IMG/VR virus record: IMGVR_UViG_3300012943_000002
Coordinates: 1 to 64,000 of that record
Reading direction: 5' to 3' (one strand)
Length of the DNA stretch: 64,000 bases
Source: a virus
Of this stretch, positions 2,900 to 57,481 are shown piece after piece. The notes beneath the pieces were generated by a model. That model made no database searches, had not been told where the DNA came from, and saw nothing but the letters and a program-made list of their open reading frames with translations. How positions within the stretch are numbered: position 1 is the stretch's first letter; each line of letters starts with the position of its first letter. The position numbers and the translations under genes are program-made.

Positions 2900-2925
2900 A
2901 ATGGCTACCAAAAACGGTAGCCATT
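2900..2925. promoter_or_regulatory. Perfect 10-bp inverted repeat upstream of terL
   Basis: AATGGCTACC-AAAAAC-GGTAGCCATT; no U-tract on the + strand. Confidence 0.55.
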
Positions 2926-11268: not shown

Positions 11269-11278
11269 ATGATATATA

Positions 11279-12001
11279 ATGACTATAAGAGAAATGCATT
11301 ATGATGCTAAACAAAAGCTTAATAAGATAGATAGTCAAAAGTATAGAGATTTATTAATACCTGAGTTAGATTGGAAGTTGAATGAAGCACAAGAGGTCTT
11401 TGTAAAGATTATAGCTGAACCTAGAACAAAGAATGAACTAGGGTTTGAAGTAAATCAAAGGACTATAGATGACATAAGAACTATAGTAGTAGATCAAAAA
11501 CCTACTGAATATATAGTCCCTAGTCAATATGATGATAGTTCTTATATAGCAACCTTACCAGATGATTACTGGTTCTTAGTAAAGACTAAGATAATGGCTA
11601 GTAAAGGTAATTGTAAAAATGTTTTACTGTATGATTCTTCACCTGTTCAACATGATGATGAAACACAGTATGATAAATTTAATAATAGTTCTTTTGAATG
11701 GAGATGTTCTAACTATAGATTTAACAAAGAAGGACTAAGAGTTTTCACAGATGGTTCTTATACTATAGACAAAGTAGGACTAGAGTACTTACAGAGACCT
11801 ATAACGATGTATAATGCAGCAGATTGGGAAGATGGAACTTATAATGGTCTAGATGGGCAGGTTTACACAGGAACACAAGACTGTCAATTGCCAGTAGGAG
11901 TACATAGAGAGATAGTAGATTTAGCAGTACTTATAATAGCTAATGATCTTAATCTACCAAATTATAGCTTAAAGATGAATAAAATAAAAATAATTAACTA
12001 A
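11279..12001 (+). CDS. Tail ring / tubular protein (P22 gp4-like)
   Basis: MH..K.KLNKIDS..ELDWKLNEAQ N-terminus, LPDDY and CQLP..HREIVDLAV C-terminus. Confidence 0.75.
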   Translation: MTIREMHYDAKQKLNKIDSQKYRDLLIPELDWKLNEAQEVFVKIIAEPRTKNELGFEVNQRTIDDIRTIVVDQKPTEYIVPSQYDDSSYIATLPDDYWFLVKTKIMASKGNCKNVLLYDSSPVQHDDETQYDKFNNSSFEWRCSNYRFNKEGLRVFTDGSYTIDKVGLEYLQRPITMYNAADWEDGTYNGLDGQVYTGTQDCQLPVGVHREIVDLAVLIIANDLNLPNYSLKMNKIKIIN

Positions 12002-12014
12002 TAAATCAAGTAAA

Positions 12015-13448
12015 ATGTCAACAGAAAATCCAGTTTTTAAAATACTAGTAACAGCAGGTAATACTGCTCCCTTAGCAGCAGGATTAGGTTTATCATCTCT
12101 TACAGCAGGTAAGATAGGTATATTCAATTCACATACCAATTTATCTGTTGATGGTACTGTAGCTGCCGATTGTAGAGATATTTACCTAGCTGTAGGAACT
12201 AGCGATGGTGATATTGTAAGATCAGCAGGTCAGCTTATACAGAATGTAAATATGAAGGCTATTACATTTAAACCATATCTAGCTTCTGTTCCTAAAATAG
12301 TAGAGATAGGTGGATTTAAAGCAAAATGTAATACAGACTATGCTATTAAAATTGAGTATAGAAATCAACAGGCTTATGGTTCATTTGGTTATAATGGATT
12401 GAAAAATACTTATAACTATACTACAGGCTGTTGTGCTGATACTTGTGATACTTGTGATTCATCTAACAGTAATGGTGCTGAGTTGGCTACAGGTTTGGTA
12501 GCAAATATCAATGCTGATCCTAATCAGTTAGTTGTAGCTTCTCTGTTTGCTTATAAGATTAATTGGACTGTAGGTGCTGCTGCCGCTGCCGCTGGTACAG
12601 TAACATTTACAGTAGGTTCTGAGACTTTCAATACAGTAGTTGCAAGTGGTGATAGTGTATCAGTTGTAGCTGGTAAAATGGTAGCAACCATTAACTCTAC
12701 TACTACTTCTGGATATACTGCTACCAATGTAGCAGGGGTAGTAACTGTATATCCTAAATCTACTAAAACCGCTGACACAGCTACAGCAGCTTTAGTATCA
12801 GCAGGTGGAACTTCTGTAACAATGACTACTATTACTCATGCAAATGGAGATATAGCAGATGGAGCAGCTTTCCAAGTTTCTTATCCCGGTGCTGGTTTAG
12901 CAATCAGGCTTACTACAGCAAATGGTACTAACACACCTTTCAATGGTAATATACCTGTTAAGTTCTATAATGCTAAAGAAACTGATATTATTGTTTCTTT
13001 GGTTGAAAACTTTAGCTGCAATGGTACAGTAACTACTATCCAGAATCTACAGTTTGAAGATGGTAATGGAATTAACTTGGCTTATGATGAATATGTTGCA
13101 GGTGGATGGGATGGTAAACCCGGACCTTATAGGACTAGTGCTGTAACTGGTTTACAAAAAGGTAGTTATGATGGCTATGTAGATAAAGCAGCTAATTACA
13201 ATACAATAGTACTTGAATACGATCAGTTTTCAGTAGGTGGATGGCAAGAATACCGTAACAATTTAAGAACTGTTATAGCCATTCCTTGTGCTGATGCTAC
13301 TACACTAGCTGGCTTAGTTGGATTCTTAGATGCTATCTTTACTCAGTTTGGTCCAATGACCAATGATGCAACTGGTATAGATTGTACTAATACAAATGTT
13401 ACAACGATAAATGACTATACTAAAGATGGTATCGAAATTCTTGCCTAA
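12015..13448 (+). CDS. Structural protein, probable auxiliary capsid protein
   Basis: 477 aa, beta/Thr-rich; last gene before a strong terminator in the capsid block; synteny with crAss-like auxiliary capsid genes. Confidence 0.55.
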   Translation: MSTENPVFKILVTAGNTAPLAAGLGLSSLTAGKIGIFNSHTNLSVDGTVAADCRDIYLAVGTSDGDIVRSAGQLIQNVNMKAITFKPYLASVPKIVEIGGFKAKCNTDYAIKIEYRNQQAYGSFGYNGLKNTYNYTTGCCADTCDTCDSSNSNGAELATGLVANINADPNQLVVASLFAYKINWTVGAAAAAAGTVTFTVGSETFNTVVASGDSVSVVAGKMVATINSTTTSGYTATNVAGVVTVYPKSTKTADTATAALVSAGGTSVTMTTITHANGDIADGAAFQVSYPGAGLAIRLTTANGTNTPFNGNIPVKFYNAKETDIIVSLVENFSCNGTVTTIQNLQFEDGNGINLAYDEYVAGGWDGKPGPYRTSAVTGLQKGSYDGYVDKAANYNTIVLEYDQFSVGGWQEYRNNLRTVIAIPCADATTLAGLVGFLDAIFTQFGPMTNDATGIDCTNTNVTTINDYTKDGIEILA

Positions 13449-13477
13449 TCTGTGTTTTTAATCTTTGAATTTTGAAG

Positions 13478-13502
13478 AGGGGGAGGTAACTCCCCTTTTT
13501 TT
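13478..13502 (+). terminator. Rho-independent terminator
   Basis: AGGGGGAG-GTAA-CTCCCCTT with a GNRA loop, followed by a T run. Confidence 0.9.
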
Positions 13503-13513
13503 AAATCTTTAAA

Positions 13514-14061
13514 ATGACAATAAACTATTTACCTTAGATAAAATAATAACTGTAGTAGCTACGGAAATAGAAGATTTCATAACTAATATAGTAGATTATA
13601 CTGGACTAACTTTAAATATAAATATTAATTGTGTAACTAGTAGTACTGAATTAGTTATTAATACTACTGATATACTAGATAACACTAAGAATGTATATAT
13701 AGAGAATAATATACTATATATTAAACCTGAATCCATAGGTGGTGCTTCTTCTTTTATAGATGGTATCTATGATCTAAGTATTAAGTTTAATAAGGAGAGT
13801 GGTTATATAAAAATATCTAACTGTTACTTCGTAGATGTTACTTTTAAATGTAAGGTAGCAAGTCTTTTACAAAATATTATAGCAGAAAATAAGGCTGGTA
13901 ATACTGAAAAGGTATCTACTATAGTCCACTTATTGCATTATAGTTTAGTAAATGGAAGTAATTGTGGATGTAATTGTCAAGAACTGTGTGATGTTTTCTA
14001 TGGATTATCAGACTTACTATTAAATATTGACACTAAATTAGTTAATGACTGTGGCTGCTAA
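13514..14061 (+). CDS. Tail-hub-like Cys-rich structural protein with a -1 frame discontinuity after codon 7; not in ORF track
   Basis: ATG 13514 reads MTINYLP*. The -1 frame is open 13513-14061 (LDKIITVVATEIEDF...FIDGIYDLSIKF...NCYF...CGCNC...DCGC*). Confidence 0.75.
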
Positions 14062-14626
14062 ATGTAATATAACTTCTTCTGCATTAAAAGTACTTAATGA
14101 ATTATATTGGGGAACTAAGGATAATACAGTAGATGATGTGATACTAGAGAATTATGCAGAAAGTTTAGGTTGTTCAGTAATGAATATATGTAATGAAGAT
14201 AACTGTATTAATTTAACAGAGACTCTCAATTGTGCTTTAGTTCTTAGTAAAATATCAGTAACTACAGACTTAAATACAGCTACTTTTTTTATAGCCGATG
14301 GAGATTTAACAGGAGGAAAAAGTCCATATAAATATACTTGGAGCTATGAAGAAGAAGATTTTGATAATAGTGGAGAAGTAGATATAGATGAAGCTGTATT
14401 AACAGTTAAACTAGGCAAAAAGTTGGATTTACTTGTATCTTTAGTAAGTGTAAACATAGTAGATGATAATGGGTGTATAGTTAATAAGGGTTGTTATATT
14501 ACTCCAACTGGAATGCAATGTGCTACAGACTATGTAAGTTGTCCTAATGTAACTGGACTTGTAGTTAATAATAAAGTAACAAAATGTTTTGGTGTAAGTG
14601 GCTTAATAGTAAATAAAAAATTATAA
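14045..14626 (+). CDS. Cys-rich structural protein (tail hub region)
   Basis: GGKSPYKYTWS and VDDNGC (SprB/Ig-like strand motifs); many Cys. Confidence 0.6.
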   Translation: MTVAAKCNITSSALKVLNELYWGTKDNTVDDVILENYAESLGCSVMNICNEDNCINLTETLNCALVLSKISVTTDLNTATFFIADGDLTGGKSPYKYTWSYEEEDFDNSGEVDIDEAVLTVKLGKKLDLLVSLVSVNIVDDNGCIVNKGCYITPTGMQCATDYVSCPNVTGLVVNNKVTKCFGVSGLIVNKKL

Positions 14627-15238
14627 ATGGCTCAATTTACTCTTATATGGAATAGTGATAGTTTAGCTACTAATGCTAACGCAACTAGCCAGAATGCATT
14701 ATATAGATATAGATTAGTAGGTGGAAGTTATATATCAGCAGGATTTACTCCTTCTAACCCATTAGGTATTTCTGCTACTACTTCTGATTCTCCTGTACTA
14801 GATACTAATAAAGTAATACAATTTAAAGTACAAGCTATTTGTACAGCTAATGGACCAACAGATAATGATAATGGAGTAGTAGAAGTGATAGAATTTGCAG
14901 CTATAGTACCGACTATAACAAAAGATACTGATTCATCTGATATAGTACTAAATGTAACTGGATTTGATATAACTAAAGCTAAGTTCACACTTAGGAAAGC
15001 TTCAGATAATTCTATAGTAGGAACACCTACAATTGTAAATAAATCTGGCTCTTCAATATCTTTTTCTCAAAGTTCATTATCATATAGCACAAACTACTAT
15101 TGGCAAGTAGAATTATATGCTACTGTAAATAGTATAGATACAGTTAGTGAAGTATTTTCACCTTACCCATTTACTACAGATGCGCCAGCAGTTTGTGATC
15201 CTGTAACAGCAATGACAATCACTTCTATTGAAGTATAG
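14627..15238 (+). CDS. Tandem FN3-like structural protein
   Basis: FTLIWN...YRY...IQFKVQAIC and LSYSTNYYWQV..FTT fibronectin-III-like patterns. Confidence 0.6.
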   Translation: MAQFTLIWNSDSLATNANATSQNALYRYRLVGGSYISAGFTPSNPLGISATTSDSPVLDTNKVIQFKVQAICTANGPTDNDNGVVEVIEFAAIVPTITKDTDSSDIVLNVTGFDITKAKFTLRKASDNSIVGTPTIVNKSGSSISFSQSSLSYSTNYYWQVELYATVNSIDTVSEVFSPYPFTTDAPAVCDPVTAMTITSIEV

Positions 15239-15249
15239 AAAATAAAATT

Positions 15250-15426
15250 ATGATACACATATTAATAACAATTTTAATAGTTTTGATAATAATGGGTCTT
15301 TTAATTTATATTGTTAAATTATTGCCTATACCTGATCCATCTTACTTAAAAACTTTACTTATTATACTAGTAGTGATAGCTACTATAGTGTATTTATTAA
15401 ATGTAATGGGATATAAACTTAATTAA
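15250..15426 (+). CDS. Small two-TM membrane protein (Thivi_2564-like), not in ORF track
   Basis: Manual translation MIHILITILIVLIIMGLLIYIVKLLPIPDPSYLKTLLIILVVIATIVYLLNVMGYKLN*; abuts the next ATG. Confidence 0.7.
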   Translation: MIHILITILIVLIIMGLLIYIVKLLPIPDPSYLKTLLIILVVIATIVYLLNVMGYKLN

Positions 15427-16449
15427 ATGGTAGAGATAACATTAGATAATATAGTTCCTAGTGCAGCCCCTACAGATGGCTGGATAGTTAAATATAGAAT
15501 TAAAGGTTCTACTGGAGCATTTATAACTGCTACAGGCTCTCCATTTAGTGCCTTCCCTATAGTTTTTAATACTACTGATCCAGCAGGTACTCTGTATGAA
15601 GTAAATATACAGAATGATTGTGATTATGCTCAAAGTACAGTTTTTACTGGAACAACTCCATGTGAATGTGTTGGTAGTGGATACACTCCTGTTGTAGATG
15701 GTTCTAAATGTGGTAAGACTACTACTATAGGAGCTACTGTTACTAATTCAGGATATTGTTTAGCTTCATCTACTAATTCAGCTTATTCTAATTATGGTGC
15801 TAGAATATATAATACAGGTTTTACTTTGTCTACAATATTATTAAACCAAGGTACACCTGATACTCATATATATGGTAGTATGAACAATAATCCTCAGTGG
15901 GCTAATCCTGCTGTGAATACTACTAGTGGACCTATGAATAGAGAAGGGGTATGGATAGATAGTGATTGTGACGGAAATAAAGATGCTCTAGGTTCTGGAG
16001 TGCAAACTACTATATCAGCAGTATATAATAATATAGGAGCAGCTAGAACAGTATTTATAGGAGTAGGAGCAGACAATCAGTTTAAGATAGTATTTAATGG
16101 AGCAGTTGTAGTAGATACTGGTACATCTGGTGGAGTTAACCAATTTAAAATATGGCATTTAATTCCTGTAACTTTAAATGTTGGAGCAAATTATTTTAAC
16201 CTTATAGCTACAGGAGATGGAAGTATAAACGATTCTATGGCAATGGTTATATATGATAATACAGCAGCACAGCTATTAGCTTCTACATCAGATTCTTCTT
16301 TATCCATACTATTTAAAAGTAGTAATTTAAGAGGAACTACTTTTGATGTAGCTACCTGTCCATCAGGATATTCTCTAGATAGTTCAGGTGGTAGTGGAAG
16401 CTATGTATGTGTTAAAACAGAATTTAAAATTTGTAATAGCATAAGCTAA
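15427..16449 (+). CDS. Structural/fibre-associated protein: FN3-like plus lectin/PA14-like domain
   Basis: WIVKYR..YEVNIQNDC; IGVGADNQFKIVFNG; flanking CxxGY..C motifs. Confidence 0.55.
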   Translation: MVEITLDNIVPSAAPTDGWIVKYRIKGSTGAFITATGSPFSAFPIVFNTTDPAGTLYEVNIQNDCDYAQSTVFTGTTPCECVGSGYTPVVDGSKCGKTTTIGATVTNSGYCLASSTNSAYSNYGARIYNTGFTLSTILLNQGTPDTHIYGSMNNNPQWANPAVNTTSGPMNREGVWIDSDCDGNKDALGSGVQTTISAVYNNIGAARTVFIGVGADNQFKIVFNGAVVVDTGTSGGVNQFKIWHLIPVTLNVGANYFNLIATGDGSINDSMAMVIYDNTAAQLLASTSDSSLSILFKSSNLRGTTFDVATCPSGYSLDSSGGSGSYVCVKTEFKICNSIS

Positions 16450-16679
16450 TGATGAACTTAGAAAAAGAATTAATAACACTTAAATACAAAATATGCTTAC
16501 TTGAAAATCAGTGTGGCAATTGTATTGATGTAGTTTTTAATTTTGCAGAAATAGTAGTAGTAGGTGGCAAAAGGAAGTTTATATATGTTATACAGGATGA
16601 AATTAATAATAACGATTCCTCTTTATATATTTATACAGGAGTAGAGCTTAAATTTTTAATGACAGTTCCAGTAATATGA
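16449..16679 (+). CDS. Small hypothetical structural protein
   Basis: Coiled N-terminus, CGNC, short beta domain; overlaps both neighbours. Confidence 0.55.
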   Translation: MMNLEKELITLKYKICLLENQCGNCIDVVFNFAEIVVVGGKRKFIYVIQDEINNNDSSLYIYTGVELKFLMTVPVI

Positions 16680-17659
16680 AAAAATTAGTATTAAACATAG
16701 TTCTTATACTTATTTCTATACTAGCTTATAGTCAGGCAGAAACTATATATAAAGTTGAAGATATACCAGCATTAAAACTTTATTATGGTAATTCTACTAG
16801 ACTTAGAGTAGTAGTTGAAAATAGAGATTATACACAATGTTCTAGTTGTATAGTTAATGATAGTACTATATATGCTGGAGCTAGTGGTAGAAAATGGCAA
16901 AGAATGAGTACAATAGATAGTAGTCATGACTTTGTTCCCGGTGGACCTATAACTTCTAATGATATAATAGGATTTAATCCAGGCACTGGTATTACTACTA
17001 GTACATTTATACAAAATGTTTTTTATCAATCACAAGCCCCTATAGCTACTTTAACAGGTGGTTTAACTCTTGAACTTAGAAGTAGCCAAACAATGAATTA
17101 TACTTTGAATTGGTCAGCAGGTAGATTATTAGCAACAAAAACATTACAAAATATTATAGTAGCAGGACAAACAGAGTCATTTACTCAACCTTCTGCTCCC
17201 GGAACAGTGTCAGGAACACAAGATGTTTCATTCCCTGCAAATACAGATATTACTTATAGTAATGTAGTGACTACAACAGATAGTAAAAGCACAACAGCAA
17301 CAACAACATTTGCATTTTTACCTAAAAGATATTATGGATGGATAAGTACTTCTGATACAGCAGGAATAGGAACTTTTGGATATGATGATTCAAAGATAAC
17401 AGCTTTAAATGGTGAACTTTCTCCATCAAAAATTAAGACATGGAATACAGGAAATCCAACAGGAACACAGATTTATGTGTATGCTTATTATTATACAGCA
17501 GGTAATCTAAACAATCTTATTCTGAATGGATTTAATTCATTAGATGCTTTTAATGTGATTCAGAGACAATTTACTAATGCTTTAGGATTTACAGGTCAAT
17601 GGATAATATATTGGAATAAAAATGGACAAACCTTATCAAGTGATGTAATCGCAAATTAA
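16676..17659 (+). CDS. Signal-peptide-bearing fibre/spike-like protein
   Basis: MKKLVLNIVLILISILAYS|Q; VEDIPALK...GRKWQR resembles tailspike N-terminal domains; FLPKRYYG beta domain. Confidence 0.65.
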   Translation: MKKLVLNIVLILISILAYSQAETIYKVEDIPALKLYYGNSTRLRVVVENRDYTQCSSCIVNDSTIYAGASGRKWQRMSTIDSSHDFVPGGPITSNDIIGFNPGTGITTSTFIQNVFYQSQAPIATLTGGLTLELRSSQTMNYTLNWSAGRLLATKTLQNIIVAGQTESFTQPSAPGTVSGTQDVSFPANTDITYSNVVTTTDSKSTTATTTFAFLPKRYYGWISTSDTAGIGTFGYDDSKITALNGELSPSKIKTWNTGNPTGTQIYVYAYYYTAGNLNNLILNGFNSLDAFNVIQRQFTNALGFTGQWIIYWNKNGQTLSSDVIAN

Positions 17660-19534
17660 ATGAAAAGACTATTAACTATACTACTATTATTATTTATTGT
17701 AAATCTATCTTTTGCACAGGTAAAAGTTGGTAGTCAAGGTGATATAATTGCAACAGGTAATTATCCAGTTGTAAAAAGTGGTGCTGTAAAAGGTGGCTTA
17801 CACCTATTCCACACTATAATAGAAAGAAATTCTTTACCCACCAATTTTAGAGATACAGGAATGCTTGCTTATGTGATAGATTCTGCAAAATTTTATTATC
17901 TAAATAATAGCATTAATAATACCGCATGGACTGAATGGCAAGGAAGTGGTGGTGGAGGCGGTAGTGGATGCACTACATTTTATGTTACTGCTGATAGTCT
18001 TTATTTTGTTAGGGATAGTTGTGGGGTATTGGATAGTACAGAGATTGTCGGAGATGGAAGTAGTGGTGGTGGTAGTAGCGTAGATTCAACTACTGCAAGT
18101 AATGGATTAACATTAATAGGTAAAGATGTACAATTGGGGGGAGCATCATCTATTGGAGCTACAATAACTTTTTCTAATAATAAGGGACTTTTATTAAGGA
18201 GAAGTGGTGTAGGTGATGTCTCTCCTATTACTCTGGATATACTAACTCCATCATCAACCGCTATAAAAGTACAATCAGGAACCGGCACAGCAATTAATGC
18301 TATATCAACTTCAAATACAGCTATCAGTGCTATATCTTATTCTGGAACTGGAGGTATGTCAGCAATTCAAGGTATCGGAGATAACACTGCTACTGGCGTT
18401 GTTGGTCAATCCTATAATGGTATGGGCGTGGCTGCATATTCGAGTTTCGGAGTACCTCTTTATGTAGGTTCATTAGGTGGAAATAGTCCTTTGATTACTC
18501 CTTTGATTAGTATAAATAGGGTTACAGGGGTGGGTGTTAATGGATTAGGAGCATCCATTGATTTCACTATTAGTAAGACAGACGGTTTTCCCGGATTATC
18601 TAATCAATTGATTTCAAAGTTAACTGGTGGAGGAAGTAACCCAACATCCGAATTTTCAATCACAGGAGTAAATAGTGGAGTTACAAATACTTTAATAACT
18701 CTTAATGGAGATGGTTCTGCTAAATTAAATAAATACGGGCAAAATTTATTCACGGGAACACTTGCAAAATCATTAGGTGTAGATGCAAGCGGAAATGTTA
18801 TTGAATATGATGTAAGCGGTGGTAGTGGAGAAACTACTCATGCCAATAATGGAGTAAGCCTTTCTGGAGACACTGTACAATTAGGTGGAACATTAACTAA
18901 AAATACTACAATAACTTCTAATGGTTATAGTTTAACTATAAATAATACTACAAACAATGTTACGCCTTTTGTGGTTACTACAAATGCAACTTCTGCAAAC
19001 GCTATTGAAGGGATAGGAACAGGTACTTCTTCAACTGGAGTATCTGGAACTGGAGCGCAAAAAGGTGTTTACGGTTTTTCATCTGGAGGTTATGGATTAT
19101 ACGGTGAATCTACAGGGGGACCGGGGTTATTCGCGAGGTCAACTAATCAATCAAGTGGTCAATTTTCAAGGGTTAATTCTTCTACAAATACAGTATTACA
19201 AAACTTATATTTAGAACGTACTACAACAGGAACTGCTGGAAATGGTATTGGTCAATTGATAGGATTTACTACTTCAACATCAAACAATTTAAGAGTATCA
19301 AATGAATTAATTTCTAAATGGACTGATGCTACTGATGCTACTCGCACTTCTGAGTTTTCAATTACAGGTGTAAATTCTGCAACAACAACAACCTTACTTA
19401 AAATATCAGGAGCAGGTGTATTTACATTAGTACAAGGGCTTACAAATTATACAGATAATGCAGCAGCAATAACTGGAGGATTAACAGTAGGTCAGTTATA
19501 CCGAAATGGAGATATAGTTCAAATAGTTCATTAA
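17660..19534 (+). CDS. Signal-peptide-bearing fibre-like protein with internal duplication
   Basis: MKRLLTILLLLFIVNLSFA|Q; KGG..ERNSLP..GMLAYV phage fibre motif; Gly linkers; beta-roll repeats; C-terminal NAAAITGGLTVGQLYRNG. Confidence 0.7.
   Translation: MKRLLTILLLLFIVNLSFAQVKVGSQGDIIATGNYPVVKSGAVKGGLHLFHTIIERNSLPTNFRDTGMLAYVIDSAKFYYLNNSINNTAWTEWQGSGGGGGSGCTTFYVTADSLYFVRDSCGVLDSTEIVGDGSSGGGSSVDSTTASNGLTLIGKDVQLGGASSIGATITFSNNKGLLLRRSGVGDVSPITLDILTPSSTAIKVQSGTGTAINAISTSNTAISAISYSGTGGMSAIQGIGDNTATGVVGQSYNGMGVAAYSSFGVPLYVGSLGGNSPLITPLISINRVTGVGVNGLGASIDFTISKTDGFPGLSNQLISKLTGGGSNPTSEFSITGVNSGVTNTLITLNGDGSAKLNKYGQNLFTGTLAKSLGVDASGNVIEYDVSGGSGETTHANNGVSLSGDTVQLGGTLTKNTTITSNGYSLTINNTTNNVTPFVVTTNATSANAIEGIGTGTSSTGVSGTGAQKGVYGFSSGGYGLYGESTGGPGLFARSTNQSSGQFSRVNSSTNTVLQNLYLERTTTGTAGNGIGQLIGFTTSTSNNLRVSNELISKWTDATDATRTSEFSITGVNSATTTTLLKISGAGVFTLVQGLTNYTDNAAAITGGLTVGQLYRNGDIVQIVH
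18090..19420 (+). repeat. Two diverged tandem copies of a ~240-aa module
   Basis: ASNGLTLIGKDVQLGG (~18095) vs ANNGVSLSGDTVQLGG (~18842); SNQLISK..TSEFSITGVNS (~18600-18676) vs SNELISK..TSEFSITGVNS (~19298-19378). Confidence 0.8.
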
Positions 19535-19542
19535 AATATAGT

Positions 19543-19791
19543 ATGAAAAAAAATTTAATCATAGCAGCGATTTTATTTACTCTTTCAGCATCAGCACAAA
19601 AGAAAGATAGCACCTATGACATTAAGCTAAATGAAAGCCAGATTCAGATGTTCTATAAAACATTAGAAGTGAGTAAGCAAGCTATTCAGCAATCAACAAT
19701 ACTTATGAACACAGGAATCGAAACTATAAAAGAAGTGGATAGTTTACAGGCGGTAATTCGTAAAGTTTATATTGATAAAAATAAGAAATGA
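19543..19791 (+). CDS. Small exported helical protein (possible fibre chaperone)
   Basis: MKKNLIIAAILFTLSASA|Q; YDIKLNESQIQMFYKTL helical hairpin pattern. Confidence 0.6.
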   Translation: MKKNLIIAAILFTLSASAQKKDSTYDIKLNESQIQMFYKTLEVSKQAIQQSTILMNTGIETIKEVDSLQAVIRKVYIDKNKK

Positions 19792-22313
19792 AAAAACTAA
19801 TATACATACTTCCTCTTTTATTCTTTGCCCAAATATCCATGGGACAACAACGAGGCACTTTAAAAACGTGGAAGGTGCAAGGCGGTGGTGGTGGCCATGT
19901 TGATACTACAAGTTTAAGCAATAGAATTAATTCAAAGCAAGACACTTCTGTTCATACCAATTTCTTCTTTGAAGCACCTCTAAATGGACGTGATACGATA
20001 ACAATAGATGATGGAGATACAACTAATGGAGTAATAAGCAGCTTGAATGGTGCATTAAAATTTAATCCAAATTTTGCAAAGGCATCCAACGCAGCAACAT
20101 ACCTGACAACACCAACTTATGACGGAAGCGGGCAAGCTGTTCATCCTGATGTATGGTATGATGCAGATGGATGGAATGGATATAAATGGTGGATGGTAAT
20201 GACGCCTTATCCCGGAGGCGTTGATACATACGAGAACCCTTCGTTGCTATGTTCAAATGATGGAGAAATATGGGCAGTTCCTCCCGGAATTACAAATCCG
20301 ATTGTTGACTTACCGGGTGGAGGACAGCATTATCTTGATCCGGAGATTATACCTCCAAGTTCATCTTATGATGGTAAGATGCGAATACTATACGGGTTTT
20401 ACAATGGAACATCCACGCAATTTTATACAAGAACATTTGATGGCACAACGATAGGTGATTCTGTTTCAACTGGATTTACACAACCAAACATGGTCGCGCC
20501 TTGCGTGATTTTACGAGGCTCAACTTACATGATGTATTATGTTGTTCGCGGGACACCCAATGTTTTGAAATTACGAACTGCATCAACACCAGAAGGCCCG
20601 TGGAGTGACCCCACTATATGCAGCTTGAATATGGGAGTAACAAATGAGGTATGGCATGTAAATTCAAATTTGGTTGACGGCAATATCATCTTAATTGTTA
20701 CATCAACATTGAAAGGACAGAACGGTGCAGGTACGCAATTATATTTTGCATCTGCAATCAATGATTCTTCCTTTTCTGTTAGTTATACCCCGATGCTAAA
20801 CAGGTCAGATACCGGATGGGACAATGATTTAATTTATCATTCAAGTGCAGTTTTCAAAGGAGATAGAGATTTTGATTTGTATTATTCCGCAATGGATAGC
20901 TCGAATATTTGGCACATAGGAAATACGTCATTCACAATGCCATCAACAACAGTATCAACAGTTGCAACAACTGGAAACTATACAGATTTGGCTGGAGTAT
21001 TTCCCGGCACTTACGCAAGTTTACCTGATAAGCCAGCGACTATTTATGATTCTGCAACTTATACGCGAATAACGAATCCTGTGGGCGGAGTTTATACAAG
21101 TATTGCGAGTTCAAGTACAGGAGCAATAGCAATAACATTGCCATATAAGTTTAATTCTACCATGTTTAGAATGACAGTGAAAGTGTTTGATTACACAGAC
21201 ATGAGTTCTTTTGATGTGACTTTTGGGGGGTACACTTTCTCGACTGGTTGGGTAAGAACATTCGCATACATAATCGCAGACCCAACTATTGACAGGCAGC
21301 TATCAGTAAGATTTGGAAGTGACGCAAATCATGCGATAGTGTACATTGGTGAATTAGCATCAACATGGGCTTATTTAAAAGTTTTTGTAACAGATATTGA
21401 AGTTGGTAGCAACGGATTGGCAGCATGGACAAACGGATTAAGCATCGGATTGGAAGCATCGGCATTTCAAAATGTAACGCAAACAAAATCTAACAAGCAA
21501 ATCGGATATGGTAAAGAAAATTCATTAGGCAATCCAGCATCAAACGGGTATGTATTATCATCAACAACAGCGGGAGTAAGAAGTTGGATTGCGCCACCAA
21601 CAAGTGGTATAAGCGGAACCGGAACCTCAAACTACATACAAAAGTCAACAGGAACCGGAACAATAGGAAATAGCTTAATATATGAAAATGGATTAAGTGT
21701 TGGAATCGGAACTACGACATCAACAGCGAATTTACAGGTAACTGGCACGGGTGGACTTGACATACTAAGATTAGTAAATTCAGGTGGTAACACAGCATTC
21801 CAAGTAGATAACAGTACTTTAAATGCAAAATTTTGGCAATCTTCATCGGCAACAGCGCCTTCCATATCTTTTATGACGGATGTAAATACTGGCATATTCC
21901 ATCCAGCAGTAGGCGCTATCGGGTTTACAAATGCAGGAGTTGAAGGAATGAGATTAGCAAGTGGTAAATTAGGCGTTGGTATCACTTCCCCGACATCTAC
22001 ACTTCAAAGTGGTGGTTCTTTTTCAGCAGCTTATATTTCAAAAACAACAACATACACAGCGACAATAAGCGATTATGCTATTGATTGTACAGGCGGCGGA
22101 ACTTTTACAGTAACGCTTCCAACAGCAGTAGGTATAACAGGAAGAGAGTATGTAGTAACAAACAGTGGGACAGGAACTATTACTATCGCAACAACAAGTA
22201 GCCAAACTTTCACTAATGTAACCGCTACTCCAACATCATTGACAATAACAAGCTATGGTACATATAAGGTTCAATCAACAGGTGCAGCATGGATTGTAAC
22301 AAGTAAATTATGA
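19788..22313 (+). CDS. Signal-peptide-bearing mosaic fibre with glycosidase-like beta-propeller
   Basis: Signal peptide; VHPDV..WNGYKWWMVMTPYP..ENP propeller; TGAIAITLP..VRFG..YIGE fibre domain; IGNSLIYENG.SVGIGTT and APSISF..D.NTGIF repeats; FTVTLPTA..GREY C-terminal domain. Confidence 0.7.
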   Translation: MKKLIYILPLLFFAQISMGQQRGTLKTWKVQGGGGGHVDTTSLSNRINSKQDTSVHTNFFFEAPLNGRDTITIDDGDTTNGVISSLNGALKFNPNFAKASNAATYLTTPTYDGSGQAVHPDVWYDADGWNGYKWWMVMTPYPGGVDTYENPSLLCSNDGEIWAVPPGITNPIVDLPGGGQHYLDPEIIPPSSSYDGKMRILYGFYNGTSTQFYTRTFDGTTIGDSVSTGFTQPNMVAPCVILRGSTYMMYYVVRGTPNVLKLRTASTPEGPWSDPTICSLNMGVTNEVWHVNSNLVDGNIILIVTSTLKGQNGAGTQLYFASAINDSSFSVSYTPMLNRSDTGWDNDLIYHSSAVFKGDRDFDLYYSAMDSSNIWHIGNTSFTMPSTTVSTVATTGNYTDLAGVFPGTYASLPDKPATIYDSATYTRITNPVGGVYTSIASSSTGAIAITLPYKFNSTMFRMTVKVFDYTDMSSFDVTFGGYTFSTGWVRTFAYIIADPTIDRQLSVRFGSDANHAIVYIGELASTWAYLKVFVTDIEVGSNGLAAWTNGLSIGLEASAFQNVTQTKSNKQIGYGKENSLGNPASNGYVLSSTTAGVRSWIAPPTSGISGTGTSNYIQKSTGTGTIGNSLIYENGLSVGIGTTTSTANLQVTGTGGLDILRLVNSGGNTAFQVDNSTLNAKFWQSSSATAPSISFMTDVNTGIFHPAVGAIGFTNAGVEGMRLASGKLGVGITSPTSTLQSGGSFSAAYISKTTTYTATISDYAIDCTGGGTFTVTLPTAVGITGREYVVTNSGTGTITIATTSSQTFTNVTATPTSLTITSYGTYKVQSTGAAWIVTSKL

Positions 22314-24241
22314 AAAAATTATTAATCATTATACTATTTATTTGTTCGTTACAAAATCTGTTCGCAGGGAATAATATCTATGTATCTGAATTTGGTAATG
22401 ATGGAACAGGTAATGGCACTTTTGGTAATCCTTATGCTACACTTCCAAAAGGTATTTCTGTGGCAGTATCAGGTGATAGTATTCAAGTTTTATCAGGTGG
22501 CTATACGCTCACAACAATCTTAGATGTACCTATTGGTATAAGTATTATTGGGCAAGATAGTGCAACGGTTATAATAGTTAGTTCATATTCGGGAACCAAT
22601 AAAGACCAAGCAGCAATAAGGTTACAAAGTGCAGATGAGACAGCAGGCAATCAGGTAATAAAAAATATAACATTATCAGGCAGCTTAACAGCATGGGCAG
22701 GTATATTGGTAATGGGTAGAAGTAATGTAACAGTACAGCATTGTTTTATCTATAATTTTTATGCAACGGGAATTTATTTCAGTGGTGCAAATTCAGGCAT
22801 TCGACCAAGTATATATGCACATGGGAATATTTTAGAATATTGTACGATTCAAAATTGTGCTGACAGGACTGCGATAAATAATTGGGGTAATGTTGCAGTA
22901 TCAGGATTCAAGCCATTAAGTGGTGGTGATACGGGCATGATTATACGAAATTGCATTATAAGACAAACAGAAAGAGCGCTTGGACAAAATGGTAATAACT
23001 TTACTATTCCGGCAGGCGACAGTTCAAGTGTAGAAGGTTTGAAATTCTATAACAATAAAAGCTATCGTAATCCTGACGATGTAGGTGCGGATTGGTCTTT
23101 CCACATGGAAATTTGGGATTGTCAAGGTGGTATGGAAATATTTAATAACGAGTTTTACGGTGGCAATCAACAGATTGATTTAGCCGGAACAGACACGTCA
23201 TATCGTAGCTTTGGATTACATGGTAATTATACCTACAATTTTTATATTCATAATAATTTATTTCAGATAGATACACCTTTCCCAAGCGCAACAACTCTAT
23301 TAGTATTAGGTGTAGATATAGAAGCTGATAAATCTGATATTATAATAAGAAATAATCATTTTGTTAATATACCTTATGCTGTTCAAACAAGCCTAAACCA
23401 TGCAGGTGCAAAAGGACAAAGAAGGATTCAAATAGACTATAATCTTATTGAACATGGTGGATTTGATAACGGTAATTTCTGCTTTGATTTTAGCATTATA
23501 GGAAGCAATCAAGCTGCTTTGGTAAGAGATTATTCAGTGGACAATAACACTTTTGCCAACACACGCACACGGGCTGCATGTTATATAACGTTAGGTAGTT
23601 TAGATAGCCTTATAAACTTTTCTTTCTCTAATAATATTGTAACAGGTGTGCCAGCGACAGGATATGGAGCTATTACATTTTCAGAAAGTACTGGACTAAA
23701 AGATAGTATTAATATGAAGAATAATATAATTTATAATTGTACTAACAGTAATAATATTTTTTATAGGAATGGTGCAATTCCCCCTATAAATTTTGATAAT
23801 GCAGGAACACAAAAAACTGACCCAATTTTTAATGGGGATTTTACATTAAAAGTTACAAGTCCTGCTATTGGAGCAGGAACAAATGGGCAAGATGTTGGTG
23901 CATTGGGAGTAATGGACTATCCTATCATAAATGTAGGTAGTGATACTACAACTTCTTTAACTACCATTACTTTATTAGGCTCTTTAGTATCTGACCCTAC
24001 TGATATTGCAACTATAACATGGATAAAGATAAGTGGAACTGGAACTCAAACTATTTTAAATAATACTACTCTTACACCAACTATTACAGGACTCGTAAGT
24101 GGGCAATATGTATTCAGAATGACAGCGCAAGATAGTGATGCAGGAAAACATGAAGATATAATAGTAAATGTTACTGGTATTAGTCCACAACAGCCTTTTG
24201 TAAAAGCTCAGGGTAGAATAATTTTTATAAATATAAACTAA
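22310..24241 (+). CDS. Exported right-handed beta-helix protein (putative depolymerase) with C-terminal PKD-like domain
   Basis: Signal peptide; YVS..GND..GNGT..NPYAT cap; repeated I.NN.F beta-helix rungs; ITW.KISG..GL..GQYVFRMT..D PKD-type domain. Confidence 0.8.
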   Translation: MKKLLIIILFICSLQNLFAGNNIYVSEFGNDGTGNGTFGNPYATLPKGISVAVSGDSIQVLSGGYTLTTILDVPIGISIIGQDSATVIIVSSYSGTNKDQAAIRLQSADETAGNQVIKNITLSGSLTAWAGILVMGRSNVTVQHCFIYNFYATGIYFSGANSGIRPSIYAHGNILEYCTIQNCADRTAINNWGNVAVSGFKPLSGGDTGMIIRNCIIRQTERALGQNGNNFTIPAGDSSSVEGLKFYNNKSYRNPDDVGADWSFHMEIWDCQGGMEIFNNEFYGGNQQIDLAGTDTSYRSFGLHGNYTYNFYIHNNLFQIDTPFPSATTLLVLGVDIEADKSDIIIRNNHFVNIPYAVQTSLNHAGAKGQRRIQIDYNLIEHGGFDNGNFCFDFSIIGSNQAALVRDYSVDNNTFANTRTRAACYITLGSLDSLINFSFSNNIVTGVPATGYGAITFSESTGLKDSINMKNNIIYNCTNSNNIFYRNGAIPPINFDNAGTQKTDPIFNGDFTLKVTSPAIGAGTNGQDVGALGVMDYPIINVGSDTTTSLTTITLLGSLVSDPTDIATITWIKISGTGTQTILNNTTLTPTITGLVSGQYVFRMTAQDSDAGKHEDIIVNVTGISPQQPFVKAQGRIIFININ

Positions 24242-24247
24242 ACAAAA

Positions 24248-24613
24248 ATGAAACGATTATTACTTATTTTAGCAATAGTATCTACTAGTACCTTTGCAAT
24301 TGCACAATCAGGAACTACAACCGTTGATGTAACAGATAGTGTTGGTGTAACTGGGGGAGATCATACAGGTTATATAGCAAGTGTTCTATGGAGTATGCAA
24401 TCAGGACCAGGAACTATGTTATTTTCAGATGCAACTAAATTAAAAACAAGTATTACAATTGATAAAATTGGTGACTTCTATGCTTTATTGACAATAAAAG
24501 ATAATCTAGGTAATATTGCTACAGCGGTTTATCATATTGTAGGAACTGTAAAACAAGGTATATTTATAAAAGTAACACTTACACCGATATATATTACAGT
24601 TAGTAAACCATGA
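24248..24613 (+). CDS. Exported single PKD/Ig-like domain protein
   Basis: MKRLLLILAIVSTSTFAIA|Q; WSMQSGPG..LTIKDNLG. Confidence 0.65.
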   Translation: MKRLLLILAIVSTSTFAIAQSGTTTVDVTDSVGVTGGDHTGYIASVLWSMQSGPGTMLFSDATKLKTSITIDKIGDFYALLTIKDNLGNIATAVYHIVGTVKQGIFIKVTLTPIYITVSKP

Positions 24614-24885
24614 AATTAATAGTAATATCTATATTATTCATTGTTAGTTGTACATCATCTGAGACTACAGCTAGAAAACCTGCAACAACTTTTATAGTTG
24701 ATTGTAGAGGTAGTTATGTAACTGGTGGGGATGGTACTGGATATTTAAAAGGATATGAATGGAAGGCTAATAATAAAGTTATAAGTACAAAACCTTATGA
24801 TACTATAACTGTACAGGGAAATTCAAATATCGTTGTTACAATAACTGATAATCTAGGTCAAACTAAATCAGAAACAGTAAAATGA
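24610..24885 (+). CDS. Putative lipoprotein, PKD/Ig-like; paralogue of the preceding gene
   Basis: MKLIVISILFIVS|C lipobox; shares VTGGDxTGY and TIxDNLG with 24248-24613. Confidence 0.6.
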   Translation: MKLIVISILFIVSCTSSETTARKPATTFIVDCRGSYVTGGDGTGYLKGYEWKANNKVISTKPYDTITVQGNSNIVVTITDNLGQTKSETVK

Positions 24886-24995
24886 AAATAATACTATCCA
24901 TAATAGCGTATATAATAATACTTATAATATCTGTATTCTGTATTATATTATCATTTATACCTGAAAAATATATTAGATGGAAGATTCATATATAG
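24882..24995 (+). CDS. Small single-TM peptide (37 aa), not in ORF track
   Basis: MKIILSIIAYIIILIISVFCIILSFIPEKYIRWKIHI*; ATGA overlap with the previous gene. Confidence 0.45.
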   Translation: MKIILSIIAYIIILIISVFCIILSFIPEKYIRWKIHI

Positions 24996-25165
24996 TAATA
25001 GGTATAGTAGTTGGAGCAATGACACTAATGTTAATGTTAGATGATCTGTTAATAGACTACTGTTATGATATTGGATTACCAACTAATTCTAAAAGGATAG
25101 GAAATGTTGTTTGGATTATAATGTTATGTGTTATAGTATTCTTAATAATAAAAAACTTTATATGA
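24977..25165 (+). CDS. Small two-TM membrane protein
   Basis: Two hydrophobic segments. Confidence 0.55.
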   Translation: MEDSYIVIGIVVGAMTLMLMLDDLLIDYCYDIGLPTNSKRIGNVVWIIMLCVIVFLIIKNFI

Positions 25166-25548
25166 TATATTTAGTAACTCTTCTCTATACATTTTGCTCA
25201 GTATTTTATACCAAATTTCAAATAGAGGATGAAAAAGCTGGATTTGAAAACTCTAAAGGGAGATGGCATCCATTTAGATTGGCAATGGCAGTATTATTAT
25301 TTGCTGCATTGTTAGTATACCAATATTTTCCTTTTGATAAGTGGGATTTTATTATATGTATAGGGCTAAATGTACTATTTGATATGGGCGTAAATAAGTT
25401 TGCATTGCATGTAAAATTATTCTATAATGGTGAAACTGCAAAGCTTGACAGGATATTTGGTAAGTTTAAATGGTATGGATATGCTGTTATATTAGCTGCA
25501 TCTATCACAGGAAAAATTATTGCCTACTATAGAAGGAAAAACAAGTAA
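25162..25548 (+). CDS. Multi-TM membrane protein (start moved to ATG 25162)
   Basis: ATGA overlap; four hydrophobic segments; WH and FYNGETAKLD motifs. Confidence 0.65.
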   Translation: MIYLVTLLYTFCSVFYTKFQIEDEKAGFENSKGRWHPFRLAMAVLLFAALLVYQYFPFDKWDFIICIGLNVLFDMGVNKFALHVKLFYNGETAKLDRIFGKFKWYGYAVILAASITGKIIAYYRRKNK

Positions 25549-25581
25549 TTTAATTTATCTTTAATAATAAAATCTAAAATC

Positions 25582-25794
25582 ATGAATCTATTATCAATTT
25601 TTGGGCTTTCTCAGACAGAAGTTTTCATTTTTCTTATTGGTGTGCCGGGTTTTGCAGCGATGATCCTATTTATTGTTTCAATTAATCCCTCAAATTTGAA
25701 AAAGCAGAGATTTATAAGACTAATTGCATGGATACTAGCTATATACTTTGTAGCTGCATTAGGATATGGATTTACAGTAGGAATACCAAAATAA
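25582..25794 (+). CDS. Small two-TM membrane protein
   Basis: Two hydrophobic segments; A-rich start context. Confidence 0.6.
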   Translation: MNLLSIFGLSQTEVFIFLIGVPGFAAMILFIVSINPSNLKKQRFIRLIAWILAIYFVAALGYGFTVGIPK

Positions 25795-25809
25795 TTCAAT
25801 AATATATGA

Positions 25810-26154
25810 ATGTTAACAAAAGAGACAGGAAGAGCTATTTCAAAAATAAAAGACCCTTATGGGAGATTAACTGTTATTGCAGTAATAGTTTTATCAGGTG
25901 CAATAGTAGCAATGTTTTGGATCATGAGGGATGATAGGTCTGAGAAATTAAATGATAACCTAATAGAAATTACTCAGCTAAAAATAGACTTGACTACTGA
26001 AAGACTTAAAACTGATAGCTTAAAGGGAATGGTTCAAGATTTAAAGGTAGATACTGCAATGCTTAGAGCAAAGTTTATCATTGAACTATATAATCAAAAT
26101 CAGAATTTTGGAAAGATTCTTGATAGTATTAAAAATAAACTACAGACAAAATGA
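25810..26154 (+). CDS. Single-TM coiled-coil protein (holin- or spanin-like)
   Basis: One TM segment followed by a long coiled coil. Confidence 0.5.
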   Translation: MLTKETGRAISKIKDPYGRLTVIAVIVLSGAIVAMFWIMRDDRSEKLNDNLIEITQLKIDLTTERLKTDSLKGMVQDLKVDTAMLRAKFIIELYNQNQNFGKILDSIKNKLQTK

Positions 26155-26570
26155 AGTTATATCCCTTTTTAACACTATTAACAATAACATGCATTATTAC
26201 TGCATTTGTTATGGGTCAAAATGATAATAATAAAAATACAGGGTGGGAAAATAGTAGGTCTGATTCTGTTAGAGCTTTAGATAAGATAGAACAGTGGCAA
26301 TCAGTATCTTTGATAACAAACTACATGAAAGCACAGGGAATGAAAAAAGTAAATAACAATGTAGATACTATATTTAATTTACTTAATAAAAAGAAAAGAA
26401 GAAAAGTAAATATAGTAGTTAAATACATAGCAATTCCTATATATGTACCTATAACAGATTCACTTACTTATGTGAAGAAAAGATATGATACCCTTTCTGA
26501 TTTGTATATTGATACAGTAAATACAAAAAGAAAGAGTATATTAAAACGATTATTTAAAAAACAAAACTAA
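26151..26570 (+). CDS. Exported or membrane-anchored protein (possible lysis accessory)
   Basis: Hydrophobic N-terminus ending VMG|Q; basic C-terminus KRKSILKRLF. Confidence 0.5.
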   Translation: MKLYPFLTLLTITCIITAFVMGQNDNNKNTGWENSRSDSVRALDKIEQWQSVSLITNYMKAQGMKKVNNNVDTIFNLLNKKKRRKVNIVVKYIAIPIYVPITDSLTYVKKRYDTLSDLYIDTVNTKRKSILKRLFKKQN

Positions 26571-26575
26571 CTAAT

Positions 26576-26935
26576 ATGTCAGAAACAGCAACATCAATAC
26601 CACAGAAAGGCTTAGGTACTGTAAAATGGCACGATGTACTTAAAGGATTATACTATATTTCTATAGGTCAGATATTGGCTTTAGTAGGATTTTTAGTATC
26701 TAGTTTATTACAGGAACATCCACATTTCCCTACTTGGGCAGAATGGCTTCCTTATGTAAAGGTAGCATGTTATAGTATAGGTGGATATATAACTGGAAAA
26801 TTTGGTGTTAATAATGTAGGTCAAATATTAAAGAAAGATCAACCTGTAGTTCATATAGGAGCAGATCAATTAGATGAATTGCAGCAGAAAGCAGACATAC
26901 TAGATTCACATGACATGGCAAAAAAAAACTTGTAA
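26576..26935 (+). CDS. Putative holin
   Basis: W.D.LKGL..TM..P.W.EW..TM..GY..KF..N pattern, two TMs and a charged tail. Confidence 0.55.
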   Translation: MSETATSIPQKGLGTVKWHDVLKGLYYISIGQILALVGFLVSSLLQEHPHFPTWAEWLPYVKVACYSIGGYITGKFGVNNVGQILKKDQPVVHIGADQLDELQQKADILDSHDMAKKNL

Positions 26936-26964
26936 ACAATTTTCAATCAATAAAAACAACAAAC

Positions 26965-27225
26965 ATGAAAAATTTCGATTTGGTAAGTATGCTGATTACA
27001 GCATTCAAGTTAGTAGGTAAACAACCTATAGTAGATGTATTACAAAGTTTGTATACTAATAACCCTAGTTTGTATGGGGCAGCTATTGGTGTAGCTAACT
27101 TTGGTCTTAGTGAAGCTCAGATTGCTGCTGCTAAAACTACTACTACTATTGATGATAATGTAGTAGCAGCACTAAGAGAAGTTATTAAAGCTTCTGCTGC
27201 TAAAAATAATGTAACACTTCTCTAA
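26965..27225 (+). CDS. Hypothetical amphipathic protein
   Basis: A-rich start context; KTTTTIDDNVV motif. Confidence 0.6.
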   Translation: MKNFDLVSMLITAFKLVGKQPIVDVLQSLYTNNPSLYGAAIGVANFGLSEAQIAAAKTTTTIDDNVVAALREVIKASAAKNNVTLL

Positions 27226-57259: not shown

Positions 57260-57481
57260 TTAAGATTTAATTTTCTTTAAAGTACTTTTCTCTATATAAT
57301 GTAGTCCTTGCATAGGATAATCACTTTCTCCCAATATGTGAAATCTAAGTTTACTACCATCATTCATTCTAGTTTCTGCCAATAGTATCTCTTCTAACAC
57401 TTCATGTTCAAGTAATAAGTGATTATTTATTACTTTTACCACAATATGTACTACTCCTATACCTTCTTCTATGCTACCCAT
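57260..57481 (-). CDS. Hypothetical protein
   Basis: ORF track; packed in operon. Confidence 0.55.
   Translation of the reverse strand: MGSIEEGIGVVHIVVKVINNHLLLEHEVLEEILLAETRMNDGSKLRFHILGESDYPMQGLHYIEKSTLKKIKS

Follow-up and report, generated by a model that had tools for sequence, protein, structure and literature searches.

The locus and its seven leader-bearing genes

The DNA analysed here, called the window, is the first 64 kb (positions 1 to 64,000) of the IMG/VR virus record IMGVR_UViG_3300012943_000002, a complete genome of 100,717 bp with direct terminal repeats whose gene layout is, judging from the sequence, that of a crAss-like phage. Between positions 16676 and 24885 the window contains seven consecutive genes, all on the + strand, whose products each start with a basic n-region, a hydrophobic core, and a cleavage site, together referred to as the leader. 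With the predicted cleavage position marked by an arrow, these genes are P1 (16676-17659, 327 amino acids (aa), AYS↓Q), P2 (17660-19534, 624 aa, SFA↓Q), P3 (19543-19791, 82 aa, ASA↓Q), P4 (19788-22313, 841 aa, SMG↓Q), P5 (22310-24241, 643 aa, LFA↓G), P6 (24248-24613, 121 aa, AIA↓Q), and P7 (24610-24885, 91 aa, lipobox IVS↓C). A preliminary description of the window had already listed the seven open reading frames (ORFs) with their N-termini, and the present analysis confirms them at those positions, on the + strand.

In a simple screen, P1-P6 display the features of Sec substrates of signal peptidase I (SPase I), namely the n-region, an h-region of about 10-15 residues, and small residues at positions -1 and -3. 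In P7, a lipobox, MKLIVISILFIVS↓C, follows directly after the h-region, as in lipoproteins processed by signal peptidase II (SPase II), and it is kept at two other loci, one from a close relative (L062, LLFVS↓C) and one from a different phage (L064, LLLTS↓C). AlphaFold2 (AF2) models place a leader helix at residues 2-18 of P1 and 2-15 of P2. When the 121 ORFs of the complete genome were screened for hydrophobicity and charge, P1-P7 were flagged in a row and ten others were scattered; seven flagged ORFs in a row far exceed chance.

The leaders could be an artifact if translation started downstream of the hydrophobic segments, a possibility raised in the preliminary description as one that would speak against export. 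This explanation was rejected. Each of the seven genes begins at the first start codon past an in-frame stop, which lies 0-84 nt upstream; the starts of P1, P4, P5, and P7 overlap the previous stop (ATGA), and P2 begins one base after the stop of P1. The next in-frame start is found 17-77 codons further on, and P7 has none. Met18 of P4 is part of the leader and has no counterpart in the L062 homologue. Moreover, the residues right after the leader are conserved in the P2 family, with invariant Q20, K22, G27, T32, G33, Y35, and P36, so translation must start upstream of them. The starts are thus forced, and the leaders are therefore translated.

The mature parts of these proteins are made of familiar phage domains. 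In P1, the leader is followed by a backbone-type N region, in which a CxxC pair is invariant and a D-S-[T/I] sequon occurs, then by an Ig-like domain and, at the C-terminus, by a conserved β-sandwich. The AF2 model of P1 (pLDDT 85) is confident for the C-terminal part formed by the last two domains and poorly defined for the N-region at residues 21-95. This C-terminal part matches the predicted structures of proteins annotated as "tail fiber", "tail protein", and "baseplate wedge" from gut and crAss-like phages, including the leader-less gp79 of phage cr131_1.

P2 consists of the leader, a conserved N-domain of about 80 aa, a Gly-rich linker, and two fiber repeats with a conserved tip; the small N-domain and the C-terminal domains are modeled with confidence, and the Gly-rich shaft with low confidence. 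The invariant positions of the P2 family fall within residues 20-75, while the C-termini are unrelated. The fiber repeats are common to 950 proteins, among them leader-less fibers with classical N-termini, and the best matches of the P2 model in the PDB, all weak, are T4 gp34 and the Bdellovibrio fibers Bd2439, Bd1334, and Bd3182. P3, whose stop overlaps the start of P4, is conserved in L062 and is probably a small helical exported protein.

P4 is composed of the leader, a short conserved anchor followed by a Gly run, a central β-propeller glycosidase-like domain, and a fiber-like C-terminal half. P5 contains a right-handed parallel β-helix and a C-terminal K319L-like PKD domain, has eight Cys in its mature part, and has a viral cluster as its closest structural neighbor. 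P6 is a small soluble PKD-like protein, paralogous to both P7 and the C-terminus of P5, and P7 is a small lipoprotein with a PKD-like domain. The domains proposed in the preliminary description were recovered for P2 (fiber repeats) and P5 (β-helix, to which the PKD domain must be added), whereas the propeller of P4 is supported by homologues with BNR_2 or GH43 Pfam matches and by a match to PDB 6n1a (1e-13) and obtained weak scores in the structure atlas.

Sequence evidence for export

In Bacteroidota, most SPase I substrates expose a Gln at position +1, which is cyclised to pyroglutamate (the Q-rule; PMC10653852). Five of the six SPase I-type sites of the cassette have this Gln, the exception being P5 with a Gly. 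The same site holds across the families: the leader is present in 53 of the 58 clusters of the P1 family, with a small residue followed by Gln in 53/53, and the other five clusters look N-terminally truncated. Among the best 150 P2 homologues, 53 have a leader, and again the small-residue-Gln site occurs in 53/53, compared with 18.5% of the control windows. The leader sequences of both families vary freely and stay hydrophobic, as signal peptides do.

A second signature comes from the cysteines, an even number of which is a mark of disulfide-bonded exported proteins. Among the P2 homologues that have any Cys, even counts outnumber odd ones 31 to 3 when a leader is present, whereas the leader-less proteins are evenly split (38 to 36; Fisher p = 3.5e-5). 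The mature window proteins have 2, 2, 0, 4, 8, and 0 Cys, and the CxxC pair of P1 is invariant among its closest relatives. Cys are too scarce in the P1 family to compare parities, and no parity bias was found in the P4 homologues, which come from mixed phyla.

The third signature is the motif D(S/T)(A/I/L/V/M/T), the sequon of the general O-glycosylation system of Bacteroidota, which serves as a glycosylation site in exported proteins only (Veith et al. 2022, PMC8729774). With the expected numbers taken from shuffles, the leader-bearing P2 homologues contain 443 sequons against 232 expected (ratio 1.91), whereas the leader-less ones contain 349 against 403 (ratio 0.87); the contrast per protein is highly significant (Mann-Whitney p = 8e-10), and the other, control motifs show no such difference. 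The ratio rises to 2.65 in the P1 family and is 1.53 for P4 homologues with a leader against 0.97 for those without. The seven window proteins together have 21 sequons where 12 are expected, each protein having at least one, while 19 other virion proteins of the phage have 49 where 46 are expected. Invariant sequons are located in the conserved N-domains of P1 (D62-S63-T/I) and P2 (D74-S75).

Because the Q-rule site, the even number of Cys, and the sequon enrichment are hard to explain inside the cytoplasm of a Bacteroidota cell, they argue for export, and the fiber-like proteins of the cassette are very probably exported. The central proposal of the preliminary description is therefore strongly supported, by the forced starts, by the Q-rule site throughout the families, by the bias toward even Cys numbers, and by a sequon enrichment restricted to the leader-bearing homologues. 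The C-terminal sorting domain of the type IX secretion system (T9SS; PF18962, TIGR04183/TIGR04131) had no match in P1-P7 at Pfam E ≤ 0.1 and NCBIfam E ≤ 1, and the default location of the proteins is therefore the periplasm, or the membrane in the case of P7.

Conservation and mobility of the module

Searches with the P2 N-domain and the P1 family recovered the module on many unrelated phage backbones. The gene order is the same at every recovered locus: a signal-less tail gene comes first, and next to it, with stop and start codons that often overlap, lies a P1-like gene, always the first of the module; behind it come one to five more leader-bearing fiber or enzyme genes, holin-like genes, and an endolysin. 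The close relative L062 has P2-P7 and the same downstream membrane proteins, and its P4 keeps the leader, about 20 residues, and the Gly run in front of a different body. The GC content of the window's phage, about 30% genome-wide, climbs to 40% across 20-22 kb, and this island is occupied by P4 and P5 (19788-24241). Together, the exchanged body of P4 and the GC island point to a recent module exchange at a conserved short N-terminal anchor. L064, from a different phage, encodes P1-like, P2-like, 1009-aa, β-helix, small leader-bearing, and lipoprotein genes in the same order, and L004, L063, and L065 contain at least the P1-like and P2-like pair. The loci L067-L078 have a GC content of 35-46%. 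One of them, L075, has three paralogous leader-bearing fibers (808, 1032, and 450 aa; 10813-17839) directly 3' of its P1-like gene; the first 40 or so residues of the three fibers are nearly identical, and their bodies differ. A run of small signal-less tail genes lies upstream.

The preliminary description had suggested a survey of related phages for signal peptides at this locus. Long leader-bearing proteins occupy the slot in 3 of 28 related crAss-like loci, namely the window, its closest relative (L005), and L058; the other 25 have conventional leader-less fibers, like Fpv1 and crAss001. Two scans of bacterial and archaeal genomes, one for each of 185,579 species, yielded no relative of the P1 family or of the P2 N-domain. 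Likewise, tblastn searches with P1, P2, and several P1-like and P2-like relatives against 50,697 records of cultured or deposited phages retrieved no homologous leader-bearing cassette; the matches were leader-less domains only, in cr131_1 gp79, in gp46 of Flavobacterium phage 11b, and in Streptomyces phage tailspikes. In the uncultured phage cr131_1 (L083), gp75-gp77 (10785-12025) have in-frame stops under translation table 11, as would be expected of a crAss-like phage with stop-codon reassignment. On this sequence record, the cassette is a conserved, mobile, and phage-specific module, and leader-bearing cassettes are peculiar neither to this phage nor to crAss-like phages.

Comparison with known systems

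The nearest counterparts among cultured phages are found in two viruses of Cellulophaga baltica, phi10:1 (gp091-gp095, NC_021802) and phi18:3 (gp085-gp087, NC_021794), which encode runs of three to five large leader-bearing proteins. As in the window, the leaders start with MK(K/N/H) and end in A/S/G↓Q sites, and the genes come after signal-less tail genes and before membrane proteins and an endolysin. Pectate-lyase-like enzymes and a "tail fiber protein" are among their products, and seven of the eight proteins (phi18:3 gp085-087 and phi10:1 gp091-094) are annotated as "structural" from tandem mass spectrometry (MS/MS) of virions. The Cellulophaga cassettes differ in having few O-glycosylation sequons and in belonging to a siphovirus and a non-crAss podovirus of marine hosts. 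No discussion of their leaders was found in the searchable papers.

The conventional fibers of crAss-like phages, such as gp22-gp26 of crAss001 and the 663-aa and 290-aa proteins of Fpv1, share with the window cassette the slot by the lysis genes and a modular exchange of C-termini. The kinds of domains are also shared, i.e., β-helix, lectin-like or propeller domains, and fiber repeats. Unlike the cassette proteins, the crAss001 and Fpv1 fibers have no signal peptide and are assembled in the cytoplasm.

A cellular parallel is given by the mosaic adhesive trimer (MAT) fibers of Bdellovibrio bacteriovorus, which have a signal peptide, a conserved N-terminal domain, a phage-fiber-like shaft, and swappable tips (Caulton et al. 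2024, PMC10769870). The P2 family resembles them in architecture only, having a signal peptide, a conserved N-domain, and variable C-terminal tips: the comparison of P2 with the MAT N-domain gave no sequence match and only weak local structural matches of 92-137 residues. MAT fibers differ as they are encoded by the bacterium and displayed on its own surface, have no link to a virion or to a lysis cassette, and in some cases include S74 chaperone domains, of which the cassette showed none.

Proteins with Q-rule leaders are also encoded by prophages of Porphyromonas gingivalis and were interpreted as phage use of the general secretion of the host (Matrishin et al. 2023, PMC10367356). They share with the cassette the Bacteroidota type of leader and the phage origin, but they belong to temperate phages, come from genes of unknown function with a presumed role in modifying the host envelope, and were not described as a fiber/depolymerase cassette of the tail module. 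As for glycosylation, to our knowledge all known substrates of the general O-glycosylation system of Bacteroidota are cellular, and no phage protein is known to be glycosylated by it. The cassette proteins would resemble these substrates in being exported and sequon-bearing, and their sequon enrichment fits the reported periplasmic bias (PMC8729774).

Relation to the virion

The cassette lies in the slot for tail fibers, and its translation is coupled to that of a signal-less tail gene. Upstream of it, signal-less tail genes of 193, 203, and 340 aa, together with a 58-aa protein with two transmembrane (TM) segments, are encoded on the + strand between 14045 and 16449 and are conserved in L005. 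They are followed by a signal-less 76-aa stub (16449-16679, + strand), which has an N-terminal helix motif, similar to the N-termini of the canonical leader-less fibers of related phages, and then a small β motif (YVIQDEINNNDSSLYIYTGVELKF); its stop overlaps the start of P1 (ATGA). L005 has two stub homologues of 86 and 107 aa, also signal-less, one ahead of each leader-bearing fiber. The sole convincing terminator-like site within 12-28 kb, at 13479-13494, is upstream of both the tail genes and the cassette, and none was found between 13494 and the cassette.

No other long fiber-like gene was found among the ORFs of the complete genome, whose remaining large ORFs encode a ribonucleotide reductase, a rIIA-like protein, helicases, a DNA polymerase, the muzzle-like protein, and cargo proteins. 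The statement of the preliminary description that the window has no long signal-less fiber gene thus holds for the whole genome, the signal-less tail proteins being those of 193, 203, and 340 aa and the stub upstream. By their position in the tail module and by homology or fold (P1, P2, and P5), the seven proteins would be classed with tail fibers and tailspikes. They depart from such proteins, which carry no export signal, in that all seven have leaders.

In textbook tailed phages, fibers and tailspikes fold and are attached to the particle in the cytoplasm. For the phage of the window a different route is proposed. The seven genes would form a late-expressed module of tail-fiber/tailspike homologues, with P1 as an adaptor-like protein, P2 as a fiber, P3 as a small partner, P4 as a propeller glycosidase-like protein, P5 as a β-helix protein, and P6 and P7 as small PKD proteins. 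Sec would move all seven to the periplasm by means of signal peptides that function in Bacteroidota, where SPase I would cleave P1-P6 and SPase II would cleave P7. The new N-terminal Gln would probably be cyclised, the Cys pairs oxidised, and the D(S/T)x sequons probably O-glycosylated by the general system of the host. The matured fibers and enzymes would be the host-recognition and glycan-degrading appendages of the phage, and they would dock on the otherwise complete particle, built in the cytoplasm, only once the downstream holin/lysis cassette merges the two compartments. This model starts from features observed at the locus (the leaders and forced starts, the conservation and mobility of the module, the fiber homology, and the three periplasmic signatures). 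From the sequence, we infer that export really takes place, that the proteins are modified, and, most of all, that they dock late on the virion. To the view that exported, periplasm-matured fibers and depolymerases join the particle at lysis we assign a probability of roughly one half.

Several points weigh against it. No tailed phage is known to us whose virion receives parts matured in the periplasm, and the topological barrier is a genuine one. P7, being a lipoprotein, would fit the role of a membrane anchor and not that of a component of the virion. In L063, L064, and L065, which share the same type of P1, the module, entire P1 included, follows unrelated tail proteins, and the covariation between the N-region of P1 and the C-terminus of the upstream protein is weak (Spearman 0.24), although three pairs do covary (L067/L075, L068/L072, and the window/L005); therefore, docking to the particle is not indicated by these data. 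The complex predicted for the 76-aa stub and residues 21-128 of P1 scored 0.00, which says nothing either way. Receptor binding could in reality be the task of the 193-, 203-, and 340-aa signal-less proteins or of the muzzle-like protein of 1610 aa. The Cellulophaga cassettes are analogous only, with no detectable sequence or profile similarity to P1-P7 beyond the leader, to which the hhalign alignment of the P1 family with gp091 and gp085 was likewise limited. Finally, MS/MS of purified virions can also detect co-purifying envelope proteins.

The strongest alternative is that the proteins are exported and never bound to the virion, acting in the periplasm or envelope of the infected cell or freed at lysis. 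P4 and P5 might then cut nascent or surface polysaccharide, destroying receptors from within or stripping capsule from debris and neighboring cells, while the fibers might mask receptors or serve as adhesins, and P7 together with P6 might tether P5 to the membrane via PKD-PKD contacts. The export signatures fit this explanation equally well; P7, as a lipoprotein paralogous to P6 and to the C-terminus of P5, suits it, and portability over unrelated backbones with an unchanged P1 would be easy for a virion-independent unit. Receptor binding could be left to the signal-less upstream tail proteins, the MAT fibers of Bdellovibrio offer a cellular precedent for exported phage-fiber-like adhesins, and the P. 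gingivalis prophages encode Q-rule proteins of unknown function. On the other hand, the cassette adjoins late tail genes and seems to be transcribed together with them, whereas genes for exclusion are as a rule early, and free non-enzymatic fibers would compete with the progeny for receptors. Neither a T9SS C-terminal domain nor another route to the surface was found in the cassette proteins, the genome has no other long fiber, and the analogous Cellulophaga proteins are virion components by their MS/MS annotation. This envelope route, which stays alive because of the lipoprotein P7 and the portability of the module, is a serious rival that we nevertheless hold to be unlikely.

It is improbable that the leaders are left unused during infection, with the proteins staying in the cytoplasm for ordinary tail assembly, either because Sec is shut down late or because the hydrophobic N-terminus is a docking or tethering helix. 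Ordinary assembly is the route of all studied tailed phages, and homologous fiber domains do occur without leaders, but the invariant small-residue-Gln site, the even-Cys bias, and the leader-restricted sequon enrichment would be left unexplained, as they make sense only outside the cytoplasm of Bacteroidota, and the free variation of a leader that keeps its hydrophobicity is that of signal peptides. Least probable of all is a moron island of recently captured host genes for secreted carbohydrate-active enzymes or adhesins with no tail link: despite the 40% GC island of P4 and P5 in a 30% GC genome and the frequency of propeller and β-helix domains in bacterial secreted enzymes, the P1 family and the P2 N-domain were not found in the genomes scanned, one for each of the 185,579 species, both families recur at the same place on phage contigs, P5 has a viral cluster as its best structural match, and P1 and P2 have phage-fiber relatives.

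Attachment of the matured proteins to the particle appears favored over the envelope route by the position in the tail module, by the lack of another long fiber, and by the MS/MS annotations of the Cellulophaga phages.

Neighboring genes and other observations

The head genes of the phage lie upstream of the cassette and comprise the large terminase (2924-5176), the portal (5169-7610), and the major head protein (8941-10401). The genome also encodes a 1610-aa muzzle-like virion protein (phrog_15100), large cargo-like proteins, and a giant ORF of 3913 aa. The closest cultured relatives are phages of Flavobacterium psychrophilum (the Fpv1/FPSV group), with about 40% aa identity for a 477-aa protein (12015-13448).

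After the 477-aa gene, a "gap" of about 600 bp (13514-14061) contains a stop-free frame with 57% identity over 166 residues to the 247-aa product of the first tail gene of L005. This frame has no in-frame ATG, the one at 13514 being in the neighboring frame, and lacks the C-terminal YV.VDETNNGD...LKF motif of the L005 protein. The gap therefore holds a real gene, for which a frameshift, a sequencing error, or an unusual start could account. Amid the signal-less tail genes, the 58-aa protein with two predicted TM segments (15250-15426) has a counterpart of 63 aa at the same place in L005.

Directly 3' of the cassette there is a cluster of genes for small membrane proteins, including a holin-like one (24977-27225, + strand). 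Within it, at 25810-26570, is encoded a protein of 114 aa that begins with a TM segment and is otherwise coiled-coil-like; its stop is overlapped by the gene of a 139-aa leader-bearing protein (…LLTITC…), and the two look like an inner/outer spanin pair. P7 was also considered as the outer-membrane spanin subunit and rejected, since it has a PKD-like paralogue in P6, travels with P5 and P6, and the pair at 25810-26570 is the better candidate. The sole endolysin candidate seen is a DUF5675 protein like crAss001 gp30, encoded at 1660-2103, remote from the cassette.

Signal-peptide-like N-termini are also present on three small ORFs of the early/replication strand, two in the window (57481-57750 and 58564-59025, both on the - strand) and one at genome positions 92747-93283 (- strand); two of the three have A/S↓Q sites (VSQ and HAQ). 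Possibly these are early proteins that are exported and have nothing to do with the fiber cassette.

Meaning for phage assembly

The domains of the cassette are ordinary parts of phage fibers and depolymerases, and the unusual element is given by the export signals and the periplasmic signatures. Literature searches on signal peptides in the tail fibers of crAss-like, Bacteroidota, Flavobacterium, and Cellulophaga phages found no description of them, in agreement with the view of the preliminary description that neither export and late joining nor display on the infected cell had been described for a crAss-like phage. Extended to the tailed phages of Bacteroidota, the proposal becomes one of two-compartment assembly, which we put forward tentatively: heads and tails would be built in the cytoplasm, whereas the receptor-binding fibers and the depolymerases would be Sec-secreted, capped with pyroglutamate, disulfide-bonded, and O-glycosylated by periplasmic enzymes of the host, and docked on the tail when the holin opens the inner membrane, so that glycans made by the host would be carried on the host-recognition organs of the infectious virion.

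The question can be put directly to the test in the Cellulophaga phages, which are in culture, carry analogous cassettes, and already have virion proteomes. Tail fibers and tailspikes determine host range. If the proposal is true, annotation practice would change, as leader-bearing proteins are usually dismissed as non-structural, and the expression of receptor-binding proteins would need disulfides, pyroglutamate, and perhaps glycans. The timing of assembly and lysis would have to be rethought, and these phages would provide the first case of a general O-glycosylation system of the host decorating a virus.

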